From NCBI GenBank assembly GCA_000503875.1, contig CP006913.1, positions 1,020,001 through 1,052,000 of the forward strand: a stretch of 32,000 nucleotides of DNA. Direction: 5' to 3'. How positions within the stretch are numbered: position 1 is the first letter of the stretch; the number at the start of each line of letters is the position of its first letter. Position numbers and translations under genes: made by a program. The notes beneath the pieces were generated by a model, which saw only the letters and a list, made by a program, of their open reading frames with translations, did not search any database and was not told the origin of the DNA. Shown one piece after another: positions 4,825-32,000 of this stretch. Origin of the DNA: Candidatus Saccharimonadota bacterium. Lineage in GTDB: Bacteria; Patescibacteriota; Gracilibacteria; Absconditabacterales; Absconditicoccaceae.

Positions 4825-6372
4825 TTACTCAGATTCCACAAAAAAAGTTCTATTTCTATACTGCAACGATTCTGCCAAACAGGCAATATCTACCTGTTCT
4901 TTTTCCTCCATATCAGCAATAGTTCTGGCAAGTTTCATAATTCTATGAATTACTCTTGGCGAAAGAGTAAGTTTGTGGGCTGCTTCACTCAAAAATTCTT
5001 TACAAGCAGCATCTAATGGAATAAATTGAGATAAATGTTGTGATTTCATATGAGCATTTGCAGTCAACGATAATCAGACGAAACGCTGTTGTTGACGCTT
5101 CCACGCTACCAATACTTTTTGTCTGAGTGTAAACGAAGACTCTTCAACGCTGGTTGTCAACAGAGAATCAACTGGTATCCTAGGAATTTCCAAAATCATG
5201 TCTATCCTGTCCAAAAGCGGCCCAGATATTTTGCTTTGATATCTTTTGATGTCCGCAAACGAACAAATACAAGCTTTTTCCTTGTCTTTATAATATCAAC
5301 ATTTACAGGGATTCATTGATGCTACAAACATAAAATTTGCAGGATATTGAATACTTCATGATACTCTGGAAATGGTTATCATGCTGTCTTCCAATGGCTG
5401 TCTAAGAACTTCCAAAACTTCTCTCGGAAACTCGGTTAATTCATCAAAAAATAAAATTCCCTTATGAGCCAAACTCACCTCTCCAGGCGTCAACGCCGCA
5501 CCTCAACCAACAATAGAAATTTTGGATGCTGTATGGTGAATTTGCCTATACGGTCTTTGTAAAATCAAGGGCTGATCTTTATGTAATTTTCACACAACAG
5601 AATAAATCTGACTTACTTCTAGGATCTCTCCAAAAGAAAGGGGTGGTAATATTCATTGGATTGCTCTACTCAACAACGTCTTTCAACTTCCTGGAGCACC
5701 TACCAACAACAAGTTATGAAATCCTGCTGCTGCAATAGCCAATGCTCTCTTGGCAAAAAGTAGTCCTTTGATATGCTCAAAATCAACAGATCATATTTGT
5801 GTCATATCAAAATCTGGCAGTTCTTTCGGTTGATCAACTTTTTCCAACTCTTTGCCATACAAAAAAAATTCCAAAAGTTGATGGAAATGAGTAAGCGGAT
5901 ATAAAACAATTCCAGGAATATATTCTACCTCATAGATATTTTCTGCAGGAATAAAAAATGTCGTATATCCATGCTTTGCTGCATCTATGATACACGGCAA
6001 CAATCCATTTATCGGTTTCAAAGATCCATCAAGCCCTAGTTCTCCAAAAAATAGTGATTTCTCGAAAAATCTGGGGACAAAAACATGGTCCTCGAAAATC
6101 AAAAATAACAGTGCCACTGCCATCGGCAGGTCAAAACTTGTCCCCACTTTTTTTAAATCCGATGGTGCCAGATTCAAAATAAATTTCTTATTGGGAATCG
6201 TGATGCCCACATTTCTAAACGTTGCTCTAATCCTTTCTTTAGATTCTTTGATAGCAGCATCAGGGAGTCAAATAATTTCAATAGAAGGAATAGAATTATT
6301 TGCATCAGCTTCTACGATAATTTCATATCATTGCAGCCCTAGATGGGTATATGTCCTGATTTTTTGAATCAT
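4825..6372 (-). CDS. comM: Mg-chelatase-like ATPase ComM/YifB (515 aa)
   Basis: A single frame runs from ATG 6370-6372 to the stop at 4825. I hand-translated the parts not covered by track ORFs (6372-6211 and 5790-5068) and relied on track ORFs 5791..6210 and 4825..5067 for the rest; every break seen is TGA. Motifs: [18 protein letters not shown] (TGA 6268-6270), Walker A GAPGS-G-KT (TGA 5683-5685), Walker [34 protein letters not shown]. Confidence 0.95.
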
Positions 6373-6402
6373 CAGAAAAACAGTGAACAAATAAAGGTTC
6401 CG

Positions 6403-6437
6403 TAAAAAAAGAAAGGATAGGGGAGAAATACTCCCCC
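6403..6437 (-). terminator. rho-independent terminator after the peptidase-like gene
   Basis: Stem ggggag (6420-6425) pairs with ctcccc (6431-6436). On the minus strand it is followed by tcctttcttttttt. Confidence 0.7.
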
Positions 6438-6443
6438 ATCAAA

Positions 6444-7286
6444 CTATCGAGGAAGAAGCTCTAAAAAATTATAATAACTATTGGAATTATTTTTCATCGC
6501 ACAATAAAAATCCCAAAGATCCATGTATTTTACATTTTTATCAAACGATCCTCGATCAGGATCCAATGAATCAGTAAAATAAATTTTGGATCCTACAACA
6601 CCTTTTTGCCAATATATACTATACACCGTTACATAATGCGTATAATTACCAGACAGAGCAATTGTCACAAAAGGAGCTCGATTTACATAAAGAAAAAGCA
6701 TCATTTGTTTAAAAACAGCTAAATAATCTGTCATACTTTTTTGCAAACTAATCGTTCTCGCTTTTACAACATTTCTATCGGTGGTATTGGTATAATCTCT
6801 GAGTTTTGTGATAAGGCTTGAACCACCACATCCATTTTTAACAGTATATACTTGATTAACCGTTACAGGATATGTTTGACCACAGACTGCGGCAACATTT
6901 CCCGTACAAATTACATACGAAGTCCAAGAACAGCTAGATCCATCCGGTTGTCGAACATGACGATATCCCCATTTATAATTATCATAACACCGGAATGCAT
7001 AGGTAGGAATAGACAAAGCAGAAACAGCATCATTAATAGTGTTGTACATAAAATCACCACTTTTCTGAATATTATTTTCAGATTTATGACCGTAGTCCAA
7101 CACGTTTTCTTTAAAAAACTGATCTTCTTCTGGGACATACTCTCCCAAAGATTTGGGTCGCTCTTCATCAGACAAGACATCATCAACAAGATTCTGATTT
7201 TCATCAACAACATCTTCTTTTTGACACCCTGCTCCAAACAGAGTAATAATTCCCATTATCAACATGACAATAATTCTTGTTTTCAT
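6444..7286 (-). CDS. putative lipoprotein with papain-fold / C39-like cysteine peptidase motifs (280 aa)
   Basis: Intact under the standard code with no in-frame TGA. Signal and lipobox-like MKTRIIVMLIMGIITLFGAGC. Gln lies 6 residues before the candidate nucleophile (RQPDGSSCSWTS). His is in GNYTHYVTVYSI and Asp in YFTDSLDPD. TAG stop. The family call is from motif memory only. Confidence 0.7.
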   Translation of the reverse strand: MKTRIIVMLIMGIITLFGAGCQKEDVVDENQNLVDDVLSDEERPKSLGEYVPEEDQFFKENVLDYGHKSENNIQKSGDFMYNTINDAVSALSIPTYAFRCYDNYKWGYRHVRQPDGSSCSWTSYVICTGNVAAVCGQTYPVTVNQVYTVKNGCGGSSLITKLRDYTNTTDRNVVKARTISLQKSMTDYLAVFKQMMLFLYVNRAPFVTIALSGNYTHYVTVYSIYWQKGVVGSKIYFTDSLDPDRGSFDKNVKYMDLWDFYCAMKNNSNSYYNFLELLPR

Positions 7287-18002: not shown

Positions 18003-18887
18003 ATGTATCTTATTGTTTTTGTCCTAGGAACACTGTTCTGATCGTTATGATCTGTACTTCTAACAAGATTGGAAGACAAAGTTGATCGATCCACCATCAA
18101 GGGAATTCTTTTTGGATTTTCGAAATGTCCTCATTGTGGAAAAAGGCTCCAAGCAAAAAACTTAATTCCCCTAATAAGCTTTTTCTTACAACAAGGAAAA
18201 TGCTCTTTTTGTAAAAAACAAATTTCACGACAATATCCAATTTTAGAAATAGCTTCTGGACTGATTTTTCTATTTTCTTATTATTTCGTGTTTGATGTAG
18301 GGAGTTATCTTATTCCACAAGGACTACATCGAATAAATTATGCTTTTCGAGCAATAACCAACCGATGATTGCTTTTGCTTATTGTTCAAGATATCAAAAA
18401 ACAAGAGCTTCATATGCCTATACGAATATTTACAACAGCACGAATTTTGCTTCGACAATTTCTTGGATTTGTAGGACAATACCAATGAGCCGTTATTGCT
18501 TCATTGCTATTCGCTGGAATATGCATGTTGATTTATTTTTGAGCAAAACGATATATCAAGCGAAAATATCACAGCGCCCAAGAAGGATTCTGACAAGGCG
18601 ACATTTTTCTGTGATTCGCATTGGGCGCTGCAATACCCTTTGTGGAACAATTTAATGCTCTTCAAATTTCGCGACAAAATCATCTCAAAACAATAGGAAG
18701 TATAATTTTTATTGCAGCTATTTTGGGTCTTATTTACGCAGGAATTGCTTGGGTTACAAAACAGCAAACAAGTATTTCAATAGACAAGAAGCACAAAATA
18801 ATTGTTCCATTTTTTCCAACGCTTATTCTTGCATTTTGGATTATGTTACTTTATGCAGATCATATTATTTCTTATCTCTTCTTATAA
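18003..18887 (+). CDS. pilD: prepilin peptidase (peptidase A24, PilD-type), 294 aa
   Basis: ATG 18003. The frame fuses track ORFs 18069..18368 and 18621..18887. Cys cluster CPHCGKRL...CSFCKKQISRQYPILE. First Asp block VQDIKKQELHMP. Second Asp block GF-G-QGDIFLGFALGA (TGA 18591-18593). VPFFPTLILAFW. Confidence 0.9.
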
Positions 18888-23290: not shown

Positions 23291-23797
23291 TTAGCGATTA
23301 CGTAAACGAAGAATATATTGTTTTAGAAGAGAAATTTCTGTTTTTAATGAATCAAGATTTGCTCTTATTTGTTGACGATGTTTTTGAAAATCAGACAAAG
23401 AGCAATCTTTTTCTATTTGGGAAGAGAGGGTTTCGAGATTTTTGGCAAGAGATGAAAAATTTTTGATATCGAAACCTATTTTAGACGACAAAACAATTAA
23501 TCAAGACAATTTTTTTGATGCTTCTTGGGCTTTTATAACCAAATTATTTCTAATTAATATTTGATCTCAAGATATACAAGAACCAGTATTTGTTGAAAGA
23601 GCTTGTCTTCTTGGTGCCAATAAACGCTGAAGTTCCTGTTTTAAACCAATTTTTTGAGAAAATCCAGTAGCGGATCCCGAATATTGTTGCTGTTGGGTTG
23701 TTTTTAATCTAAGGGGAGATATTCTTGCAGGTTCTTTTGCAAAGGTAAAGCTACCAAGCAGAAAGAAACAAATAAGAATAAATAATACGTTTTTCAT
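23291..23797 (-). CDS. secreted protein with C-terminal coiled coil (168 aa)
   Basis: ATG 23795-23797. Signal MKNVLFILICFFLLGSFTFA. Continues through TGA 23567-23569 and 23501-23503 into track ORF 23291..23491. TAA stop. Confidence 0.6.
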
Positions 23798-23815
23798 AAT
23801 AAGTAGAGATAACAA

Positions 23816-24193
23816 CTAAATCAAAGTTTCTAATTCAGACAAAAGATTTTCGGTTTCCAAAAGAGTTAATTCAATATTATCTAAATCTTGTGATTTAACT
23901 AAGATAGGATCATTTGATATAGTATTTTCTGTGATATAGGTAATAGAAGAATCTTTCGGAACGGAAGCAATTTCTTTATTAGTAAATTTTTCAACTGAAG
24001 GAGAATTAGAATATGTTTTCAAGTACAATCGTGAAAAAAGTATAACAACACCCAGAAACAATGAATATCCAGAAATTGCTTTTACAAAAAGACTTCTTTT
24101 TATCAAAGATCATTTTTTGGGATAAACATGGTTCATAACTTTCTGTTTAACCTCATAAGGTACTTGTGATGGAGTTGGAAATACATAAGGCAT
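23816..24193 (-). CDS. single-pass membrane protein in anti-sigma position (125 aa)
   Basis: ATG 24191-24193, 10 nt after the sigma stop. MPYVFPTPSQVPYEVKQKVMNHVYPKK-G-SLIKRSLFVKAISGYSLFLGVVILFS, then an extracytoplasmic tail. No zinc anti-sigma motif was seen, so the call is positional only. Confidence 0.5.
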
Positions 24194-24203
24194 GATAAAA
24201 AGT

Positions 24204-24809
24204 TTAAGATAAAAGTTCATCACGAATTCAATGAAGAATTGATAGTTCGTTAAGCTTCTTTTTGGCATTAAAGAGAGTTGTTCAAACTGAGTTTTTGTTC
24301 GTTCAAAGCATATCTGCAATTTCTTCATATGATTTTTGTTCTTGATAGGCAAGATATAGTATTTCCCTTTGTTCTAAATCTAAATAAGTAAGCATTTTTT
24401 CAAAGATTTTTTGTTTGAAAGAGGAATGAAGACGGTGTTTATGTTCATCAATATAGGCTAAACTCTCTTTGAGATATGTTTGATCCAAGGAAACATTTGA
24501 ATACGTTTTATTTGCTCTTATCCAATCAATAGCTATATTATGTGCAAGACGATAAATAAATCACCTAACATTGGTTAAAGATTGTATTTTGATATATTCA
24601 TAGAGTTTTATAAATACATCACTTGTCAAAGAAACAGTATCGTCATAGTTATAATTAAGGAGATTCCATAGATACGCATATATTTTTTTATGTCGTCTTT
24701 CATATAATTCCTCGAAAGCAGCTACATTTCATCTCTGTACGTCCAAAACCAACTGTTCATCAGACAGAGAAGAAAAAGAAGCAGCAAAAAAGGATATTTT
24801 TCTCATCAT
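24204..24809 (-). CDS. RNA polymerase ECF-type sigma-70 family factor (201 aa)
   Basis: ATG 24807-24809. Region 2: SDEQLVLDVQR-G-NVAAFEELYERRHKKIYAYLWNLL...VR-G-FIYRLAHNIAIDWIR. Region 4: LDLEQREILYLAYQEQKSYEEIADML-G-TNKNSV-G-TTLFNAKKSL. TAA at 24204-24206. Confidence 0.9.
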
Positions 24810-24895
24810 TGTAAATAAAATAAAAGCCTTTTTTGTTGTAGTGTTTTTTCTTCAAAAATACAGACGAAAATTATTGACAAAAATTTTGTATTTTT

Positions 24896-24923
24896 TTGCA
24901 TTTACCAAGGAAATGGTTATAAT
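24896..24923 (+). promoter_or_regulatory. candidate sigma-70-type promoter for the giant ORF
   Basis: TTGCAT (24896-24901), 16-nt spacer, TATAAT (24918-24923). A perfect TTGACA also lies at 24874-24879. This would give a leader of about 120 nt before ATG 25047. Confidence 0.35.
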
Positions 24924-25046
24924 ATAAAATAAGACGCCGATACTTTGCAAAGAAGTATAACGTCGTTTCTATCCAGCGTAGTCGAATAGGAATTTGAAAA
25001 AATCCTATGTGACAGAGGACATATCCTTTACTTTTGTGATATTTCT

Positions 25047-28000
25047 ATGGCAAAAAAACCACATCAAAAGAAAGATTCGGCATTACAAATAACACAACAA
25101 GACACCGAACAGACCAATAAATCACTATCTAAGATAGCTAACAATAAAATTGAGGAATCACTCAAAGAATTTTCTAAATTAAGTGAAAAAGAAAGAGATA
25201 AGTTTCCTTGAAGCAAGGAATTTTTCGAACAATTTTGGGAATATTTTAAACAACAACATCCAAATTTATTAGACGAAATAGACAGTCAAGAAAAACTTAC
25301 CATTTATGTTCAAAATCTTGAAGAAAAAGGATTTTCTATAGAAAATCTTATGAAAAATTCCAAGGAATTACACAAAGACTTTAAAGAAACAAATAACGAA
25401 AAAGAAAGTATTGTCGAAAGTCTAAAACAATTTCAACAACATTGCAACAACCCAGAAAACAAGATGCCAGCAAACATCTTCAATGATTTTGCAAATGACA
25501 TTAATCTAAAAACTACACCAAATATTAGTATAGACAAAAAAACCAAAATATCCAAAATAGGAAATCTTTTTTCTGTTTGGACAAATTATTTAGAAAATAA
25601 TTGAATAAAACTAAAAGATCATCAAAAATCTGAGGCAGAAAAAATTTTATGTCCAAGATATGTACCAACAGAAAGACTCCTGATCAGTGCCACAATCAAA
25701 AAAATCAAAAAAAATCTTCCAGACACACTCATAACAGATTTCGAAGCAGCATTTCCCTTGCCAATAGATATCCATTCCTCATTTGAAAATCTCAAAGATC
25801 TCAAACAACAACGAACACTTTTTCTTGATGGACACAAAAATGTAATAGATGAAAATCTTGCCAAGAAGTTAGACAAAATAATAATTACCAACTGAGATGT
25901 ATATAAAGAACTTCAATATGAAGGAGAAAAAATAGAACGGACAAAATGATTTGGTGAACAAACCGAAAATTTTAGAAGAATGTTTAATTCTTTGGCAACT
26001 CGTCAAATATTTGACGACACAAAAGAAGCTGGATCTTATATAGAACACCATCTAGAACTACTTGGAAAAGAATTCAAAGAATTTCCTCCATATTTTAACG
26101 AATTATTCAACATCTACCCTTATAAACACAAAGATGTAATAGAAAATCAACCAGAATTTAAAACAATATATCAACAACAAGAATCGCTTTTACAAGAGAA
26201 AGAAGCTCTTTTAAACAAAGAAAAACCAGAAAGCGAAAAAAACAAATCTTTGGAACAACGAAGAGAGGAAAATTATCAAGAAGTACTCAAAGCAAAAGAA
26301 GATCTAAATGCTATCAAACGAAAAGCTTATGCAGCATATATTAATCAAAAAAATCCAGAATTGGGAACTATGGTAAGCGCTCTTGTGGAAAATAAATTTG
26401 ATATGGCCAAACTTTCCAAATCTGATCAACAAAAAATAGTGAATATTTTGGTAACAAAAAAATTGGGCGATAGTATCAAAAATCAAATTCCCCAGACACT
26501 AAAATTAGATCCAAAAGAATACAAAGAATTCGTAGAGAATCTCTTTGATCTCAATCAACAAGATATCGTTATCCCGACACAATACGGAAATATCCCCCTC
26601 CATTTTCTAGAAAAAAGTTTTTTTTGAGGACCAACAAAAGAAGCAATGGAAATCAACAATTCAGGGACTATAATAACTGAAAAGCATAATTTACCTCTGA
26701 ATTTTAAAGTAGAAATTACTGAACAAAATAAGGAATTTTTTGAAGACAATATCATATTTGATGATCTATTCAAATCATTTAATAGCAAAAAATGACCAGT
26801 AAGATTAAATGATAGTTATAAAGTATCTATCAAACGTAAAGATTGAACTAGCGTAGAATGATATCTTTCTCAACAAATACCAACAAAGGAACTTGAAGAG
26901 GAAATAGAAAGTGGGGCTATAAGAAATGGATGGTTTCTTTATTCGCAACCTATTACAAGACCTGAAGATGCTGATGAAAGAAAAATTATCACGCGAGAAT
27001 GAACACCAGGAGGAACACCAGTAGCTATACCAGAAACCAAAGAAAATGAATATGATATAGATATTGTTTCCAAAGAAATAAATCTGAATGGAGAAGCTAT
27101 CTGAGCTTTGCTATTTTCGCATACTTTAGGTCAATATAATGTAAAGAATGACCTTACTAAAGATCAAGAAAAAAAACTTGCACAAAAATTTGGTAAATTA
27201 GACAAAAACACTGTCTACAAAGATGTAGATGTATTAGACAAAATAATAGATCAAGATAAAAGACAAGAAGAAAAACCTAGAGAAAAAACCAGAGAAAAAG
27301 AATATGAAGAATTTTTAGAAGAACGAAAAAATCTAAGAGGATATCAAGAAAAAGGTAAGTCAGAAGAAAAAACATATGGATTCAAAAAATGAGCAAAATT
27401 ATTGATACAATGACCAGAAAGTTGATTTGAACCAATATGATCTTTCCAATATATTAATGCGGAAATCAGTAATATAGACAAGGAATTAGGTGTTTTTAAG
27501 GTGAAATTTACAGGAAGTGAGCAAAGCTTAGGAAAATATGAAGGAACGGAAAAACAATTTTCTCTTGCAAAAAAATGATTACAAAAATTTAAAGATGTAT
27601 TTGAAGAAAACAAAATTTTCAAACTTCCAAACGAAAATATATGTAATGACATAAAGAGCGTAATATCAACATTTGAAGATAATAAAATAGATAATGTAGA
27701 ACCTGGAGCAAGTTTTCAGTGAACAAGTCGAAATGGAAATAATTTTGTAATAGATATGGGTAAAGAAGAGTGAAAAGAAGTAACTCATTTTGGGGTTATA
27801 GAGACATTACCTGGCGAGAGTCAAAATGAAGAAAGCAAAACAGGATATATGTACAAAATAGAACACGAACCATTAAAAAAACGCTTTAAAGTTATTGCTA
27901 ATGACAAAGAAAAAACAACTATACACTTGGATTATCCAAATTTTGTATTATTTGTAGCGAGCAAAAAACTTCAACCAAAAACAGAAGAATCTTCAAAATG

Positions 28001-30338
28001 AATAGATATTCCAGAAAAAGAATGACCAACTATAGATAAACCCAAGAAACGAAAATGATACAGTATAGCCAGTGTGCTTGGATTAGTCAAAAATTTTGGA
28101 AAAAAAATAGGTGATAGTTTAAAAAAATACGAAGAAGAACAAATAGAAGAATTAACAGAAGATATGTTTTTTCATGGAAAGCTTTTTCATAAACTAGCGT
28201 GAATTATGCCAACCAAAAAACTTCAAGAATCTTTTGAAAATGTAGGAGACGAATATCTTATAGAAAGAGACAATAAAGTTTGGAAAAAAATAGAAAAATA
28301 TCAAAAATTTTACGAATCAGATCCTGATTTTGGTGGTGATTATCTTTGGACACAAAGGATCCAACCATATTTAGAAGGCAAAAAACCTTTTAAAGATCAT
28401 CATCAAGCTGCGGCCATGTTATTGGCTACAACAAAGAAATGAAAAGGTCCATATAGTAGAAATACTGATCGAGCAGGAAAAGGAAATCGAGTAAGGATTC
28501 TTTTTGGAGAATGACACCAAAAAAGATATCTTTTGATGAAAGAAAAGCTTCAAAGAGAGTTAGATCAAGGATACAAAGTACACGGTCAGATATGGGCAGA
28601 TAATCTCCAAAATGAAATATTAAAATTGGAAATGAAATATATTACCCATTGTATAGATGGAAGACAGTTAAGAGTCGGATGATCAAACGACGATACACCA
28701 CAATTAGAAGGAATGTATTCAAAAAAATTTGCTTCGACATTAGAAGAAGAAACAAATAAATTTTTTTCCGAATCAGTAAGTGGTAGCTCAAAAGAAAAGG
28801 GCTATAGTTTTGAACTTGCCAGATTTGAATATTTTAGATTATTAGCAGATAGACCTCAACAAGCAATTCCTTGTCTCAAACAAATTGCAGCCAAAGCAGT
28901 GACACCTAATCAATGGAGGGTATTTGAAAGCGCTGTTTTGACAGGAATGTTATCATGAGCTTTTTATAACATTACCCAAGAAGACAAAAGTTTTATTCAA
29001 AAAATATGTAGAGCTATTGGATTTTTACCAGGTATGTGGATTAGAGATCCAAATCATCACCATAAAGTAGAACATTTTATCAAAATAGCCACAGGAGAAG
29101 ATATAGTTTGATATGAGAAAAAAGATGATAAAATAATACCATACAAAAGTGATAAATTTTGATTTTGAAAATGAAAAGATTTAGATCAATTTAAGAAAGT
29201 TGCTGGATATGATAATGGATTAAATTTACGACTTACATGATCAAAAAAAGAATGAGCGCCAAGTCGTCTCAAACAAATTGCTGAATTTGCTGCAATGAAA
29301 TGACAAAATTTCGAATGAAAATCTCTTATTGAATTAATTAATGATCCAAGAACCCCAATAGAAACAATATATCTTCTCAAAGAAATAGAAAAAAGAAGTT
29401 TAGAAAAAGATGAAGAAGTTGATCCAGATATCAAAATGAATGGATACGGACTAGAACAAAATATCTTGGCAAAAAACCAGAGTCTTATAGATGAGATTAC
29501 TGATTTTCAAGAAGGTAAATTTAAAGGAAAAAATAAAGATGAAATTCAATGAATTCAAACAGCACGAAGTAGAATAGCAAAAGACATTCCAAGAAAAGAA
29601 ATAAAAGACAAGAATCAAGTAATCTATCTCCTTAAAAAATTTATGAATTGGTTTGAAGGAAGATGATTTAATACAGAAGAAAAGAAATTTCTTGTAAGGA
29701 CGTTATTAACAGCAAAAGAAGAAATAAATAAAGGTCACTGACAAAGTGCTGATGAAATGTTGTGGTATGTAACTGTAGGAAATATTGTAAAAAATTCTGG
29801 AAATGGACAAGCACCAGACGAATTAATAAATGGACTCGAAGCGTTCAAAGATTTTTTCAAAAACAACTTAAATACTATTCTTGAATCAGATGTAATAGAA
29901 CAAAGCTTGGGAAGTATGTACCTTGAAGCAAAAAACAAATGAGCTTTTGAAGTAGGACCTTGGGAAGAATATGTTGATCTCACAAAAAATAAATTTTTTA
30001 TAGGAAGATCCAAAGAAGAAAATAAAATAAGAAATGAGAAACAAAAAAAATATAAAAATCCCGAAATAATTAATGAAAAAATATATGAAATTGCAAAACA
30101 AGTAAATCAAAGAAACCACATAGAAAATAAATTTGATAGATATTTCAATCTTGACGCTACGAAAACAATATCTGAAAAGCTTCATGAAACTCTTGAAAAG
30201 AAAAATATTCGTTTTAAAAATCCAGAAACTGCAGGGAAAATAAGACATATTCTTTCTGAAAAAGATAATTCAGAGAACCTTTCTGATGATGATTTGGCTG
30301 CTGCTGCTCAAATGGAAGAAGATCAATATTATAGTTAA
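25047..30338 (+). CDS. giant orphan protein, 1763 aa, Lys/Glu-rich, no recognisable domain
   Basis: ATG 25047. I translated the whole frame by hand. It has no TAA/TAG for 1763 codons and 37 in-frame TGA by my count. It fuses track ORFs 25350, 25980, 27108, 28206, 28713 and 29757. TAA at 30336-30338. No signal peptide or TM-length hydrophobic stretch was noticed. Confidence 0.8.
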
Positions 30339-30381
30339 TAGTTTTTTTAACAAAAAAATAAGCATTGCTGCTTATCTAGAT

Positions 30382-31275
30382 TTAATTCGAGGGATGAGGG
30401 GATTGAACCCCCGACTGCGGTTCCGAAGACCGTCATGTTACCACTACACCAATCCCTCATAGATTGAACTGCCCTTAACTTTTCATCAAAAATTTAACAA
30501 TTCACGACTGTATTTGATCAAGAACTTCTTGTTTACCTTTTTCTGGTATCTGGGTATCAGACAACAAAAACGCAACAAGCTTATCTCTCATCTCTTCAGT
30601 GAAAGCTTTTTTACTTATTTTCTCAAACTTTTCAATAGCTTCGTGCCATTTAGCAAATACTTCCAACAACTCCCAATCATTAGAAGATATTTGATAAATA
30701 ATTCCATTATTTGTTTCTACAAGATCTTTTTTGAGAAAGAGTCCTTGCTGTTGAAGCTGTATAATAATTTCATCTAAATATTCTTGATAATGCAAATATT
30801 GTCAAAACAAAGGAAGCTGAATTTTTATGGACATCAATTCCCCTGCTTTCGATTCAAATTTTCCGTATAACAACGTTAATCCATACAACAACGATATTTT
30901 TTCTTCTATTGAATCAAATTTCCAGTTACAAGGCGCAGGAATCACAAAATCTACATCCCCGCGTGCCCCTGGCCAAAAATACTTCTGTTCCCCGCTGACT
31001 TCGTCAAACGATACAAACAACCCATATCCCTGCGCCATTGCATCACTTTTCAGATTCAACAATCAACATCCAGAATTTTTTACAAAAATCAAATTCATTC
31101 AATCACCAAAATGTTTGAGATTAACTAATTTAAAATCTTTTTTATGAAGAACAACCATTCATTTATCTCGATCAGAAAATTGATACCCAGCAACCTGATA
31201 GGTATATTGTTTTACCTGAAGTATTTCTGGGTGTTCAACGCACAACAAATTATGCTGATCAATGACAAGTTTCAT
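30382..31275 (-). CDS. hypothetical protein downstream of grpE; under code 25 the frame reads through the tRNA gene
   Basis: ATG 31273-31275 (MKLVIDQHNLLCVEHPEILQ...). It fuses track ORFs 30802..31062 and 30502..30795 via TGA. The protein-like sequence ends ...EVLDQIQS at TGA 30502-30504. The next TAA/TAG in frame is 30382-30384, beyond the tRNA. Confidence 0.55.
30388..30458 (-). tRNA. tRNA-Arg (anticodon UCG), 71 nt, no encoded CCA
   Basis: Minus-strand sequence: GAGGGATTGGTGTAGTGGTAACATGACGGTCTTCGGAACCGCAGTCGGGGGTTCAATCCCCTCATCCCTCG. It has a 7-bp acceptor stem (GAGGGAT with ATCCCTC), U8, A14, GG in the D-loop and a T-loop TTCAATC. The anticodon loop CTTCGGA gives UCG. There is one A-C mismatch at the top of the anticodon stem. 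Confidence 0.8.
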
Positions 31276-31306
31276 AGACACACAAATATAAGATAAACAT
31301 TATTAT

Positions 31307-31933
31307 CTATGCTCAAATAACAACTTTGCTAGGTACAATAACTGTTCTTTGACCGTTTCTTTCTATATAGAATCCTTGTTGAAAAACTTGTACGATTTTA
31401 CCTTTTTGAGATTCATCCTCTACTGGCAATGTAGATAACGGTTCATGTAATAAACTATCAGGAGCAAGTCCCAAAGATTCAATAGGATAAATATCAAACG
31501 ATGCTAATGTTTTTAACATATTGTCATATACCATTTTTACTCATTGGACAAAAGAATCATTATCCTTTGTTGTATCAGTATGATCCAAGGAAGATTTAAG
31601 CTGATCTATTACTGGAAAAAGCTTTTTCATGTATTTAATTAAGGTATCTATTTCCATTGATTTTTCTTTTTCCAAAGACAATCTCTGTAATCTATCAAAA
31701 TCTGTTTTTAGGTTTATATAATCATACTGAACTTTTTTGGCTATATCCAAAGCCTCTTGTTTTTCTTTTTCCAACAAAGAAATTTTTTCTTTATATTCAT
31801 TTTTTTGTTGTTCAGAAGAAATTGTTTCTTCATCAAGTTTATCTTGTTGAACTTTTTTCAAAGCTTCTTCCAAAGAAGTATCTTCTTGAGAGATTTTATT
31901 CTCATCTTTTTTATGTTCGTCTTTTTTTGTCAT
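31307..31933 (-). CDS. grpE: nucleotide exchange factor GrpE (208 aa)
   Basis: ATG 31931-31933. Track ORFs 31541..31933 and 31313..31534 are joined by TGA 31541-31543. Motifs: YDYINLKTDFDRLQRLSLEKEK, LFPVIDQL, GVKMVYDNMLKTL, SLLHEPLS, VQVFQQGFYIERNGQRTVIVPSKVVI. Then TGA 31313-31315, Ala and TAG 31307-31309. Confidence 0.9.
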
Positions 31934-31936
31934 AAT

Positions 31937-32000
31937 TTACAACAAATAATCATCTAAAACAGTTTGTTGAACCGCATACCATTCTGCAAAAGATTGGTTA
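31937..32000 (-). CDS. 3' end of an upstream gene (partial), product unknown
   Basis: Open frame entering from the window edge, ...NQSFAEWYAVQQTVLDDYLL, with TAA at 31937-31939, 3 nt before the grpE start. Too short to identify. Confidence 0.35.
   Translation of the reverse strand, partial: NQSFAEWYAVQQTVLDDYLL

Follow-up and report, generated by a model that had tools for sequence, protein, structure and literature searches.

The giant gene and its reading frame

The window, a stretch of 32,000 nucleotides (nt) covering positions 1,020,001 to 1,052,000 of contig CP006913.1 from an Absconditabacterales genome (assembly GCA_000503875.1), has a G+C content of 30%, and UGA is clearly read in it as a sense codon. 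The main subject of this study is the gene at positions 25047–30338 (+ strand) of the window, here called the giant gene, and its product, the giant protein. Translated with genetic code 25, the gene is a single frame of 1763 codons with a TAA stop and 37 in-frame TGA codons. It is the longest code-25 open reading frame (ORF) in the window, followed by one of 522 amino acids (aa), and had been correctly singled out as the largest feature in an earlier interpretation made from the letters alone (the sequence-only reading). The product is approximately 204 kDa with a pI of 6.6, and its described richness in Lys, Glu, and Asn was reproduced (13.0, 10.9, and 6.7%, respectively). The peptide that had been quoted as an example of a long helical stretch was located at residues 384–431, and the quoted acidic C-terminus at residues 1746–1763.

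The reading frame was examined by stop codon content, codon usage, and comparison with relatives. Frame +0 of the gene contains 38 stops by translation table 11 and the terminal TAA alone by table 25, and the remaining five frames contain 18–123 table-25 stops apiece. In the standard-code ORF list, exactly six in-frame ORFs of 61–215 aa on the + strand fall within the gene, as had been reported. TGA makes up 34% of the glycine codons both in the giant gene and in the other 23 window ORFs taken as genes, and the gene is considered native because of this match. Of 36 TGA codons that could be aligned with the closest relative (locus L032, 83% aa identity), 31 face Gly codons, 17 of them TGA and 14 GGN. 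The ratio of nonsynonymous to synonymous substitution rates (dN/dS) for the same pair was 0.11 (dS 0.78, dN 0.085; 1752 aligned codons), and the gene is under strong purifying selection. The claim of an uninterrupted, native code-25 gene with 37 UGA-encoded glycines was thus confirmed.

A misassembled or decaying frame has a negligible probability; frameshifts or misassembly within the ORF had been named by the sequence-only reading among the findings that would refute it. Across 5.3 kb there are 37 TGA and no TAA or TAG codons in the frame (compared with the stop-rich alternative frames), TGA and GGN are exchanged at conserved glycine columns, and the promoter is conserved (see below). More than 50 independent assemblies have a collinear gene of equal length, and together with the dN/dS value and the alignment of UGA with glycine in L032, this rules the artefact out.

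The giant protein is 100% identical to the GenBank entry P148_SR1C00001G0958 of candidate division SR1 bacterium RAAC1_SR1_1 (P0001 in the homologue set), annotated as a hypothetical protein on a 1.18-Mb contig, and the sequence has been public as such since 2013. The closed RAAC1 genome was described by Kantor et al. 2013 (PMC3812714) without discussion of this protein. No paper discussing the family or its locus tag was found in the literature, including that on the RAAC1 genome, Gracilibacteria metaproteogenomics, and Vampirococcus.

A conserved family in recoded genomes

The giant protein had been described as an orphan, and this description did not hold. Twenty-two further full-length homologues were retrieved (1713–1832 aa, 83% down to 33% identity, 92–100% coverage), all without frameshifts, and those bearing organism names were all from SR1/Absconditabacteria. 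The 23 sequences align end to end with a mean column identity of 51%, and variable stretches are confined to the regions near residues 361–420, 721–750, and 1351–1410 and to the extreme termini.

For more distant relatives, 1.84 billion cluster representatives were searched with a profile built on the last 761 residues. At E ≤ 1e-3 there were 211 matching clusters, of which 50 reached E ≤ 1e-30. Many of the 211 are short fragments, which standard-code gene calling is expected to produce from a UGA-rich gene, and collinear proteins of 1345–2291 aa are also present. A profile of the full-length alignment covers the distant relatives either wholly or from position ~200–700 to the end, and the N-terminal helical region is retained in them only in part. 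A second, word-indexed homologue search with a wide alignment returned only the close homologues already known.

The copy number was assessed by a motif scan with the KKGKGPYSRN loop as the pattern in one genome per GTDB species. The scan gave 29 loci, each in a different assembly, and so points to a single copy per genome. All 29 are metagenome-assembled genomes of the Absconditabacteria/SR1 type, many of them third-party annotation records labelled generically as 'Peribacteria'. Conservation in other code-25 genomes, which had been suggested as a test, was therefore found, with one copy in each of the 29 species genomes.

The distant relatives are stored as translations with UGA read as Trp and show 3–6.5% 'W'. 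Forty columns hold Gly in all of three SR1 proteins that are translated correctly; at these columns, the majority of the ten distant proteins checked show either 'W' or G, and one distant relative (P0124) has G and no W. The genes of the distant relatives carry 45–102 in-frame TGA codons. Every relative checked is recoded, and as far as sampled, the family is confined to lineages in which UGA encodes glycine. Its members so far share a collinear architecture, a length of 1345–2291 aa, and the motifs KKxxxPY, HxxR[YF], and LxxxEMxY, and the giant protein has the same features. The three core motifs are also present in the consensus of profile A4, one of the profiles used below.

Searches for known families and folds

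Pfam scans gave only noise for the giant protein, all 23 family members, and five distant relatives; among the 23 members, no Pfam family was matched by more than two, and the best E-value was 0.02. NCBIfam, PHROGs, and PADLOC scans returned nothing. PDB sequences were searched starting from the protein itself and from four profiles (A1–A4, alignments of 16–37 sequences), and no match at E ≤ 0.01 was obtained. The best PDB sequence match, PDCD10 (E = 0.02, in a helical stretch), was rejected as noise.

The tiled structure prediction and Foldseek searches proposed by the sequence-only reading were carried out on two tiles modelled with AlphaFold2 (AF2), and no known fold was assigned. The tiles were multi-domain, the models were of moderate confidence, and the libraries were PDB for both tiles and BFVD for the N-terminal one. 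The C-terminal tile gave only weak matches in PDB (E 0.09–0.4, probability ≤ 0.44, TM score ≤ 0.21), and the N-terminal tile had no match in PDB (best E = 0.17) or BFVD (best E = 0.07). The statement that no domain can be recognized was thus upheld.

Membership in several specific classes was also considered. No AAA or P-loop Pfam match was found in the giant protein or its 22 homologues. Two Walker-A-like strings at residues 765 and 1419 were discarded, being unconserved in the 23-sequence alignment. The reported lack of a nucleotide-binding motif therefore stands, and no conserved P-loop, HExxH, DxD, or nucleophile-elbow motif was seen in the giant protein. Phage, mobile-element, or defence proteins are not indicated by any PHROG, PADLOC, or BFVD fold match and are contradicted also by stable housekeeping synteny over 32 loci. 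Adhesion and interaction domains (PKD, FN3, WD40, integrin, VWA, and others) had no Pfam match in the giant protein, its homologues, or the distant relatives. By every test made, at the level of sequence and of predicted structure, the single-copy, full-length-conserved family appears to be new and to lie outside known families.

Predicted anatomy

The AF2 tiles comprised residues 1–1010 (N-tile; mean predicted local distance difference test score [pLDDT] 73.5, predicted TM score [pTM] 0.43) and residues 1003–1763 (C-tile; pLDDT 75.2, pTM 0.66), each with a 16-sequence alignment. The predicted regions are listed with the other features of the locus in Table 1.

Table 1. Features of the giant gene, its product, and its upstream region, with positions in the window
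Feature	Positions	Strand	Basis
Sigma-70-type promoter: −35 TTTGCA (24895–24900), 17-nt spacer, −10 TATAAT (24918–24923)	24895–24923	+	Consensus scan, 10/12
5' leader insertion of ~85–90 nt, genome-specific, small hairpins	24931–25018	+	Missing from L032, L003, L004, L005, L027, L008, L022
Giant-protein coding sequence, 1763 aa, code 25, 37 UGA-Gly, TAA stop	25047–30338	+	Frame analysis, dN/dS 0.11 vs L032, Gly codon usage like neighbours
Residues 1–29, N-terminus, polar and weakly conserved, predicted to be disordered, no signal peptide	25047–25133	+	pLDDT 27–37, hydropathy, low conservation
Residues 30–500, predicted helical N-terminal region	25134–26546	+	AF2 N-tile, conservation profile
Residues 506–720, predicted first beta-rich (alpha/beta) domain	26562–27206	+	AF2 strands 506–681, pLDDT ~80–88; without fold match
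Residues 721–746, variable charged linker, predicted disordered	27207–27284	+	pLDDT 26–48, low conservation, gaps
Residues 780–985, predicted beta-rich domains two and three, where the core conserved across the family starts	27384–28001	+	AF2 strands 784–978
Residues 1003–1715, predicted all-helical C-half, weakly solenoid-like	28053–30191	+	AF2 C-tile; weak ARM/HEAT matches, E ≥ 0.09
Residues 1130–1139, KKGKGPYSRN, basic Gly-rich loop with Y1136	28434–28463	+	Y1136 invariant, 58/58
Residues 1157–1161, HQKRY	28515–28529	+	H1157 88%, R1160 78% across the wide family
Residues 1194–1198, LEMKY	28626–28640	+	E1195 58/58, Y1198 86%
Residues 1255–1275, FELARFEYFRLLADRPQQAIP, most conserved block within Absconditabacterales	28809–28871	+	Local identity 0.80
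Residues 1745–1763, predicted disordered acidic/aromatic C-terminal tail ending DDDLAAAAQMEEDQYYS	30279–30335	+	pLDDT < 50

In the models, many short helices are combined with beta domains. The long helices (34–39 residues) are confined to residues ~307–435 of the helical N-terminal region, at residues 307–345 and 402–435, and the variable stretch at 361–420 is K/E-rich. A coiled-coil giant of the Mycoplasma HMW2 type is not indicated by this AF2 secondary structure, on which the comparison rests in place of a dedicated coiled-coil predictor. Internal repeats were not detected when nine sub-regions were compared with one another by hhalign (probabilities ≤ 2.7%). In the tail, the last 12 residues hold 2–7 D/E, 1–5 aromatic residues, and no K/R in 26 of the 27 Absconditabacterales-type homologues; in the exception (P0025), the tail ends in a single Arg. 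This composition is not kept in the distant relatives.

Conserved core and possible catalysis

To measure family-wide conservation, all full-length relatives were aligned (58 sequences, ~19% mean column identity). Only 26 columns are at least 90% conserved; most of them hold G, F, L, P, or Y, and few are polar. The density of conserved positions climbs from residue ~750, is concentrated at ~750–1350, and peaks at 1050–1150; the stretch best conserved across the family is residues 1050–1350, in the C-half. Y1136 and E1195 are invariant, followed by Y936 (97%), K1015, S1006, S1225, and N1676 (91%), and R1269 (90%). The KKGKGPYSRN loop is the most conserved motif, yet it is unstructured in the model (pLDDT < 50). 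In the block at residues 1255–1275, E1256, A1258, E1261, R1264, R1269, Q1271, and Q1272 are invariant in the 23-sequence alignment. Among the positions at least 70% conserved in residues 1000–1350, there are 13 K/R against 6 D/E, and the net charge of residues 1101–1200 is +10. This basic excess fits binding of an anionic partner and would fit an active site as well.

The giant protein may accordingly be considered as an enzyme of an undescribed fold, with an active site in the core (~1050–1330) built from Y1136, H1157, R1160, E1195, Y1198, and R1269. Its substrate would most plausibly bear phosphate, e.g., a nucleic acid or a nucleotide, and the remainder of the protein would recognize the substrate or a partner. 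This explanation, the main rival to the one favoured below, is unlikely. Two polar residues remain invariant in 58 of 58 relatives despite the low column identity, H1157, Y1198, R1269, R1074, and K1131 are conserved at 78–90%, and the neighbouring genes often encode nucleotide, DNA, or RNA enzymes (tmk, topA, rlmN-like, rluD-like). The most conserved motif is moreover a basic Gly-rich loop, a feature that occurs in many phosphate-binding sites. It is opposed by the absence of catalytic families among the Pfam, NCBIfam, and PDB results and of a fold match, by the lack of the conserved catalytic and nucleotide-binding motifs listed above, and by the small number of conserved polar residues for a protein of 1763 aa.

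A loose likeness to tyrosine recombinases and topoisomerase IB was noted in H-x-x-R (1157–1160) followed 38 residues on by a conserved Tyr in 'Y-I-T-H'. The candidate was rejected: none of the 23 members matches Phage_integrase or Topoisom_I, no integrase fold was matched, and the region is predicted to be purely helical, without the beta sheet of these enzymes. The spacing of HxxR and Y differs from theirs, Asn rather than His/Trp lies ~9 residues before Y1198, the invariant Y1136 and E1195 are off the recombinase pattern, and the spacing of the candidate R/K is wrong.

Promoter, leader, and gene neighbourhood

Taken as a raw count, the promoter scan is at chance level (4 sites vs 2.8 expected). 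Both hexamers upstream of the giant gene are kept in all eight loci of the clade to which the giant gene belongs (the query clade), despite differing upstream genes. Because of this conservation even where the upstream gene differs, TTTGCA-17-TATAAT is very likely the gene's own promoter, as had been proposed. The leader fared differently. The distance from the −10 box to the ATG is ~30 nt in the relatives, and the additional ~85–90 nt occur only in the window. The leader folds weakly (z = −1.87; 11 of 200 shuffles fold as well), and no second copy of the insertion occurs within the window. An Rfam scan of positions 24000–32000 detected only a tRNA-Arg, so the leader contains no known riboswitch. 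The suggested structured leader is therefore a weak fold in a genome-specific insertion that seven related loci do not have, not a conserved element.

Upstream of the giant gene, a gene for an extracytoplasmic function (ECF)-type sigma factor (Sigma70_r2 and r4_2) lies in divergent orientation. The head-to-head arrangement with an ECF sigma/anti-sigma cluster was thus borne out for the sigma factor; the anti-sigma label is unverified, as the small ORFs downstream of it (23816–24352 and 23291–23815) have no Pfam match. The linkage is also local: the sigma factor gene adjoins the giant gene only in the window, L003, and L032, and the genes upstream differ in the other loci. As listed, the ECF sigma ORF (24204–24950, − strand) starts at TTG and is over-extended. 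Its likely start is the ATG at 24809 (MMRKISFF...), giving a divergent intergenic region of 237 nt. Directly downstream of the giant gene and convergent with it, the tRNA-Arg gene (anticodon TCG) occupies positions 30387–30459 (− strand).

Synteny was analyzed in 32 loci by code-25 ORF calls and neighbour clustering. In a deep Absconditabacterales clade (33–37% identity to the giant protein), genes for an rluD-like pseudouridine synthase and a Germane-domain protein precede the giant gene, which is followed by those for thymidylate kinase, VanY, GrpE, YqeY, two uncharacterized proteins, and RarA/MgsA. The order in the query clade is TPR protein, multi-transmembrane protein, giant gene, an uncharacterized 268-aa gene on the opposite strand, GrpE, and VanY. 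Over all loci, grpE lies within three genes in 21/32 and vanY in 22/32; a tmk-family gene is directly downstream in 14/32, likewise in the distant locus L035, and the rluD-like gene is upstream in 16. In distant loci, the giant homologue is adjoined by topA, a gene for an rlmN-like radical-SAM enzyme, ybaB, relA/spoT, proS, or trmD. The context is housekeeping and not secretion, pili, defence, or mobile DNA. The synteny test suggested for other code-25 genomes thus gave recurrent housekeeping neighbours.

The 268-aa protein gene (30475–31281, − strand) has no Pfam match and is conserved directly downstream in six loci of the query clade, followed by grpE. On the upstream side of the window, a prepilin peptidase (Peptidase_A24) gene (18003–18887, + strand), followed by membrane/surface protein genes, lies 6–7 kb from the giant gene.

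Two further explanations draw on this neighbourhood. The giant protein could be an extremely diverged or fused universal housekeeping protein (a replication, chromosome-organization, or RNA-processing factor) whose homology has been erased in an AT-rich, fast-evolving genome. Its universal single-copy presence, the housekeeping synteny, and the recurrent adjacency to tmk agree with this; in other bacteria, tmk classically adjoins holB, and candidate phyla radiation (CPR) genomes often hold strongly diverged essential genes. A fold usually outlasts sequence, and the Foldseek searches found no fold match, the profiles of 16–37 sequences found nothing in PDB at E ≤ 0.01, and no Pfam match recurred among the 23 members scanned, all of which leaves this origin a slim chance.

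Alternatively, the family could represent a new class of enzyme or molecular machine that defines an essential trait of UGA=Gly lineages, e.g., one directed at nucleic acids or ribosomes with Tyr1136 and Glu1195 as catalytic residues. It is put forward because all sampled relatives read UGA as glycine and because genes for rRNA/tRNA-modifying and nucleotide/DNA enzymes recur alongside, and it would tie the emergence of the family to the biology of recoded, predatory, ultra-reduced cells. We regard it as quite unlikely.

Cellular location and the question of host interaction

The maximum Kyte-Doolittle hydropathy (KD) over 19-residue windows is 1.03 in the giant protein. None of the 58 full-length relatives has a hydrophobic N-terminus, as judged by hydropathy and not by a dedicated signal-peptide predictor, and by the same measure no export signal or membrane anchor was found in the giant protein or the 58 relatives. 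The sole segment that approaches a transmembrane helix is a conserved internal hydrophobic helix, AVLTGMLSG(A/V)F, at residues ~1290–1310 (window positions 28914–28976); it reaches a KD of 1.6–1.86 in 4 of the 58 relatives and is modelled as buried within a helical bundle. The earlier statement that there is no signal peptide or transmembrane segment thus agrees with the polar N-terminus and the low hydropathy. Because the N-terminus is polar and disordered, the 19-residue hydropathy does not exceed 1.03, and hydrophobic N-termini are absent from the family, the giant protein is apparently cytoplasmic.

The location bears on the host or prey interaction suggested by the sequence-only reading, in which the protein would be exported or displayed non-classically and serve epibiotic predation by Absconditabacteria. 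Those Absconditabacteria that have been cultured and observed are epibiotic predators, and their giant proteins have been proposed for host attachment (PMC8080830). Genes for cell-wall enzymes also lie near the giant gene (vanY in 22/32 loci, an SLT transglycosylase), as does that for the Germane-domain protein. We nevertheless consider this role improbable: none of the 58 relatives has a signal peptide or transmembrane anchor, adhesion-type domains and repeats are absent, the gene is single-copy, and no secretion genes are conserved alongside, the neighbours being housekeeping rather than secretion or pilus genes. The uniform full-length conservation and the dN/dS of 0.11 are also unlike those of fast-evolving surface proteins.

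Published giant proteins of Absconditabacteria/CPR, such as the ten largest of Vampirococcus lugosii, were described as membrane/surface proteins with adhesion or interaction domains (WD40, PKD, integrin, and alpha-2-macroglobulin; PMC8080830). The giant protein resembles them in being very large, lineage-restricted, largely unannotated, and encoded by a small, reduced UGA=Gly genome. Unlike them, it has no signal peptide, transmembrane anchor, repeats, or adhesion domains and is uniformly conserved under purifying selection. One unannotated protein of similar size among the ten largest of Vampirococcus (VAMP_54_69, 1723 aa; PMC8080830) may be an orthologue. The result corrects the assumption that all giant CPR proteins are surface adhesins.

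A proposed cytoplasmic hub or scaffold

The explanation we favour, with a probability of roughly 0.4, is that the giant protein is a lineage-specific, single-copy, cytoplasmic multi-domain hub or scaffold with a housekeeping function in UGA=Gly Patescibacteria (Absconditabacteria/SR1 and recoded relatives). In the core (residues ~750–1350), two beta domains would precede a helical one, which carries the KKGKGPY(1136) loop, the motifs HQxRY and LEMKY, and numerous conserved Lys/Arg. The partner bound by the core would be conserved and probably anionic, for instance a nucleic acid, a ligand that bears a nucleotide, or an acidic protein. Recruitment of further proteins would fall to the less conserved helical N-terminal region, to the distal array of helices, and to the acidic/aromatic tail. 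The weak, ARM/HEAT-dominated fold matches, the mostly non-polar invariant residues, the basic core, and the conserved tail composition are consistent with a scaffold-like role. The sequence-only reading had offered a scaffold as one conjecture; it is compatible with the helical, weakly solenoid-like C-half and the few catalytic-type residues but is unproven.

The likeness to ARM/HEAT scaffolds lies in the C-terminal ~700 residues, which are predicted to be all-helical, and the few conserved residues of catalytic type. Among the top PDB fold matches of the C-half, ARM/HEAT solenoids (importin-alpha, CRM1, PP2A-A, UNC-45, Ric-8A) predominated, alongside further helical scaffolds, e.g., the NOT module of CCR4-NOT; all of these matches were weak. 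Unlike these scaffolds, the giant protein has three beta-rich domains, a separate helical N-terminal region, and no sequence repeats; no Arm or HEAT Pfam match was obtained at E ≤ 1 in it or its 22 homologues, and tandem repeats of ~40–47 residues were not detected.

The tail may act as a docking peptide, by analogy with known systems. The C-terminal tip of SSB (DDDIPF) and the tails of phage T7 gp2.5 and gp4 are acidic/aromatic docking tails, and the giant protein likewise has a disordered C-terminus that is rich in Asp/Glu and Tyr/Phe and nearly free of basic residues. In contrast to SSB, it has no OB fold, nor does it resemble SSB in any other way; its tail is conserved in composition and not in sequence, and the tail is absent from distant relatives.

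Several points weigh against the hub or scaffold. The role is one that we infer, and it names no partner or ligand; nor does the housekeeping synteny name a single pathway. The solenoid likeness is below significance (E ≥ 0.09, TM score ≤ 0.21), and the AF2 models, built from 16 sequences, are of moderate confidence only (pLDDT 73–75; N-tile pTM 0.43). The conserved polar cluster (Y1136, E1195, Y936, R1269, H1157, and Y1198) could equally be an active site, and the hydrophobic helix at ~1290–1310, with a KD above 1.6 in 4 of the 58 relatives, would still allow peripheral membrane contact.

Genomes of ~1 Mb devote 5.3 kb to the giant gene, so its product very likely does something indispensable to these cells. 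Approximately half of SR1/Absconditabacteria proteins have no assignable function, and conserved proteins of this kind are common in these genomes; the giant gene stands out among them by its size, single-copy conservation, and restriction to recoded lineages. The family offers a clearly bounded subject for structural and cell-biological studies in the few cultivable representatives (Absconditicoccus and Vampirococcus co-cultures), and it could serve as a phylogenetic marker of the recoded clade.

Observations at distant loci

Large unannotated ORFs were observed beside the distant homologues in four loci: L002 (12374–18622, 2082 aa), L034 (3181–6903, 1240 aa), L035 (1–3771), and L033 (17073–19592), with sizes quoted for the last two of > 5113 and > 1964 aa, respectively. 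In L035, the distant homologue also lies beside purA (adenylosuccinate synthase; 5400–6824), the product of which is 45–52% identical to its closest database matches. The matches bearing organism names are from Bacteroidales/Bacteroidota, and only three metagenomic proteins are closer, which suggests that this purA was acquired horizontally by a UGA=Gly bacterium.

In L002 (GCA_054013275.1, JBPLRA010000028.1, positions 1–20377), the G+C content is 22.3%, and glycine is encoded almost wholly by UGA. Over eight called genes, 433 TGA and 58 GGN codons were counted; in the giant homologue by itself, there are 102 TGA and 2 GGN. This locus represents an extreme end-point of the reassignment of UGA to glycine.

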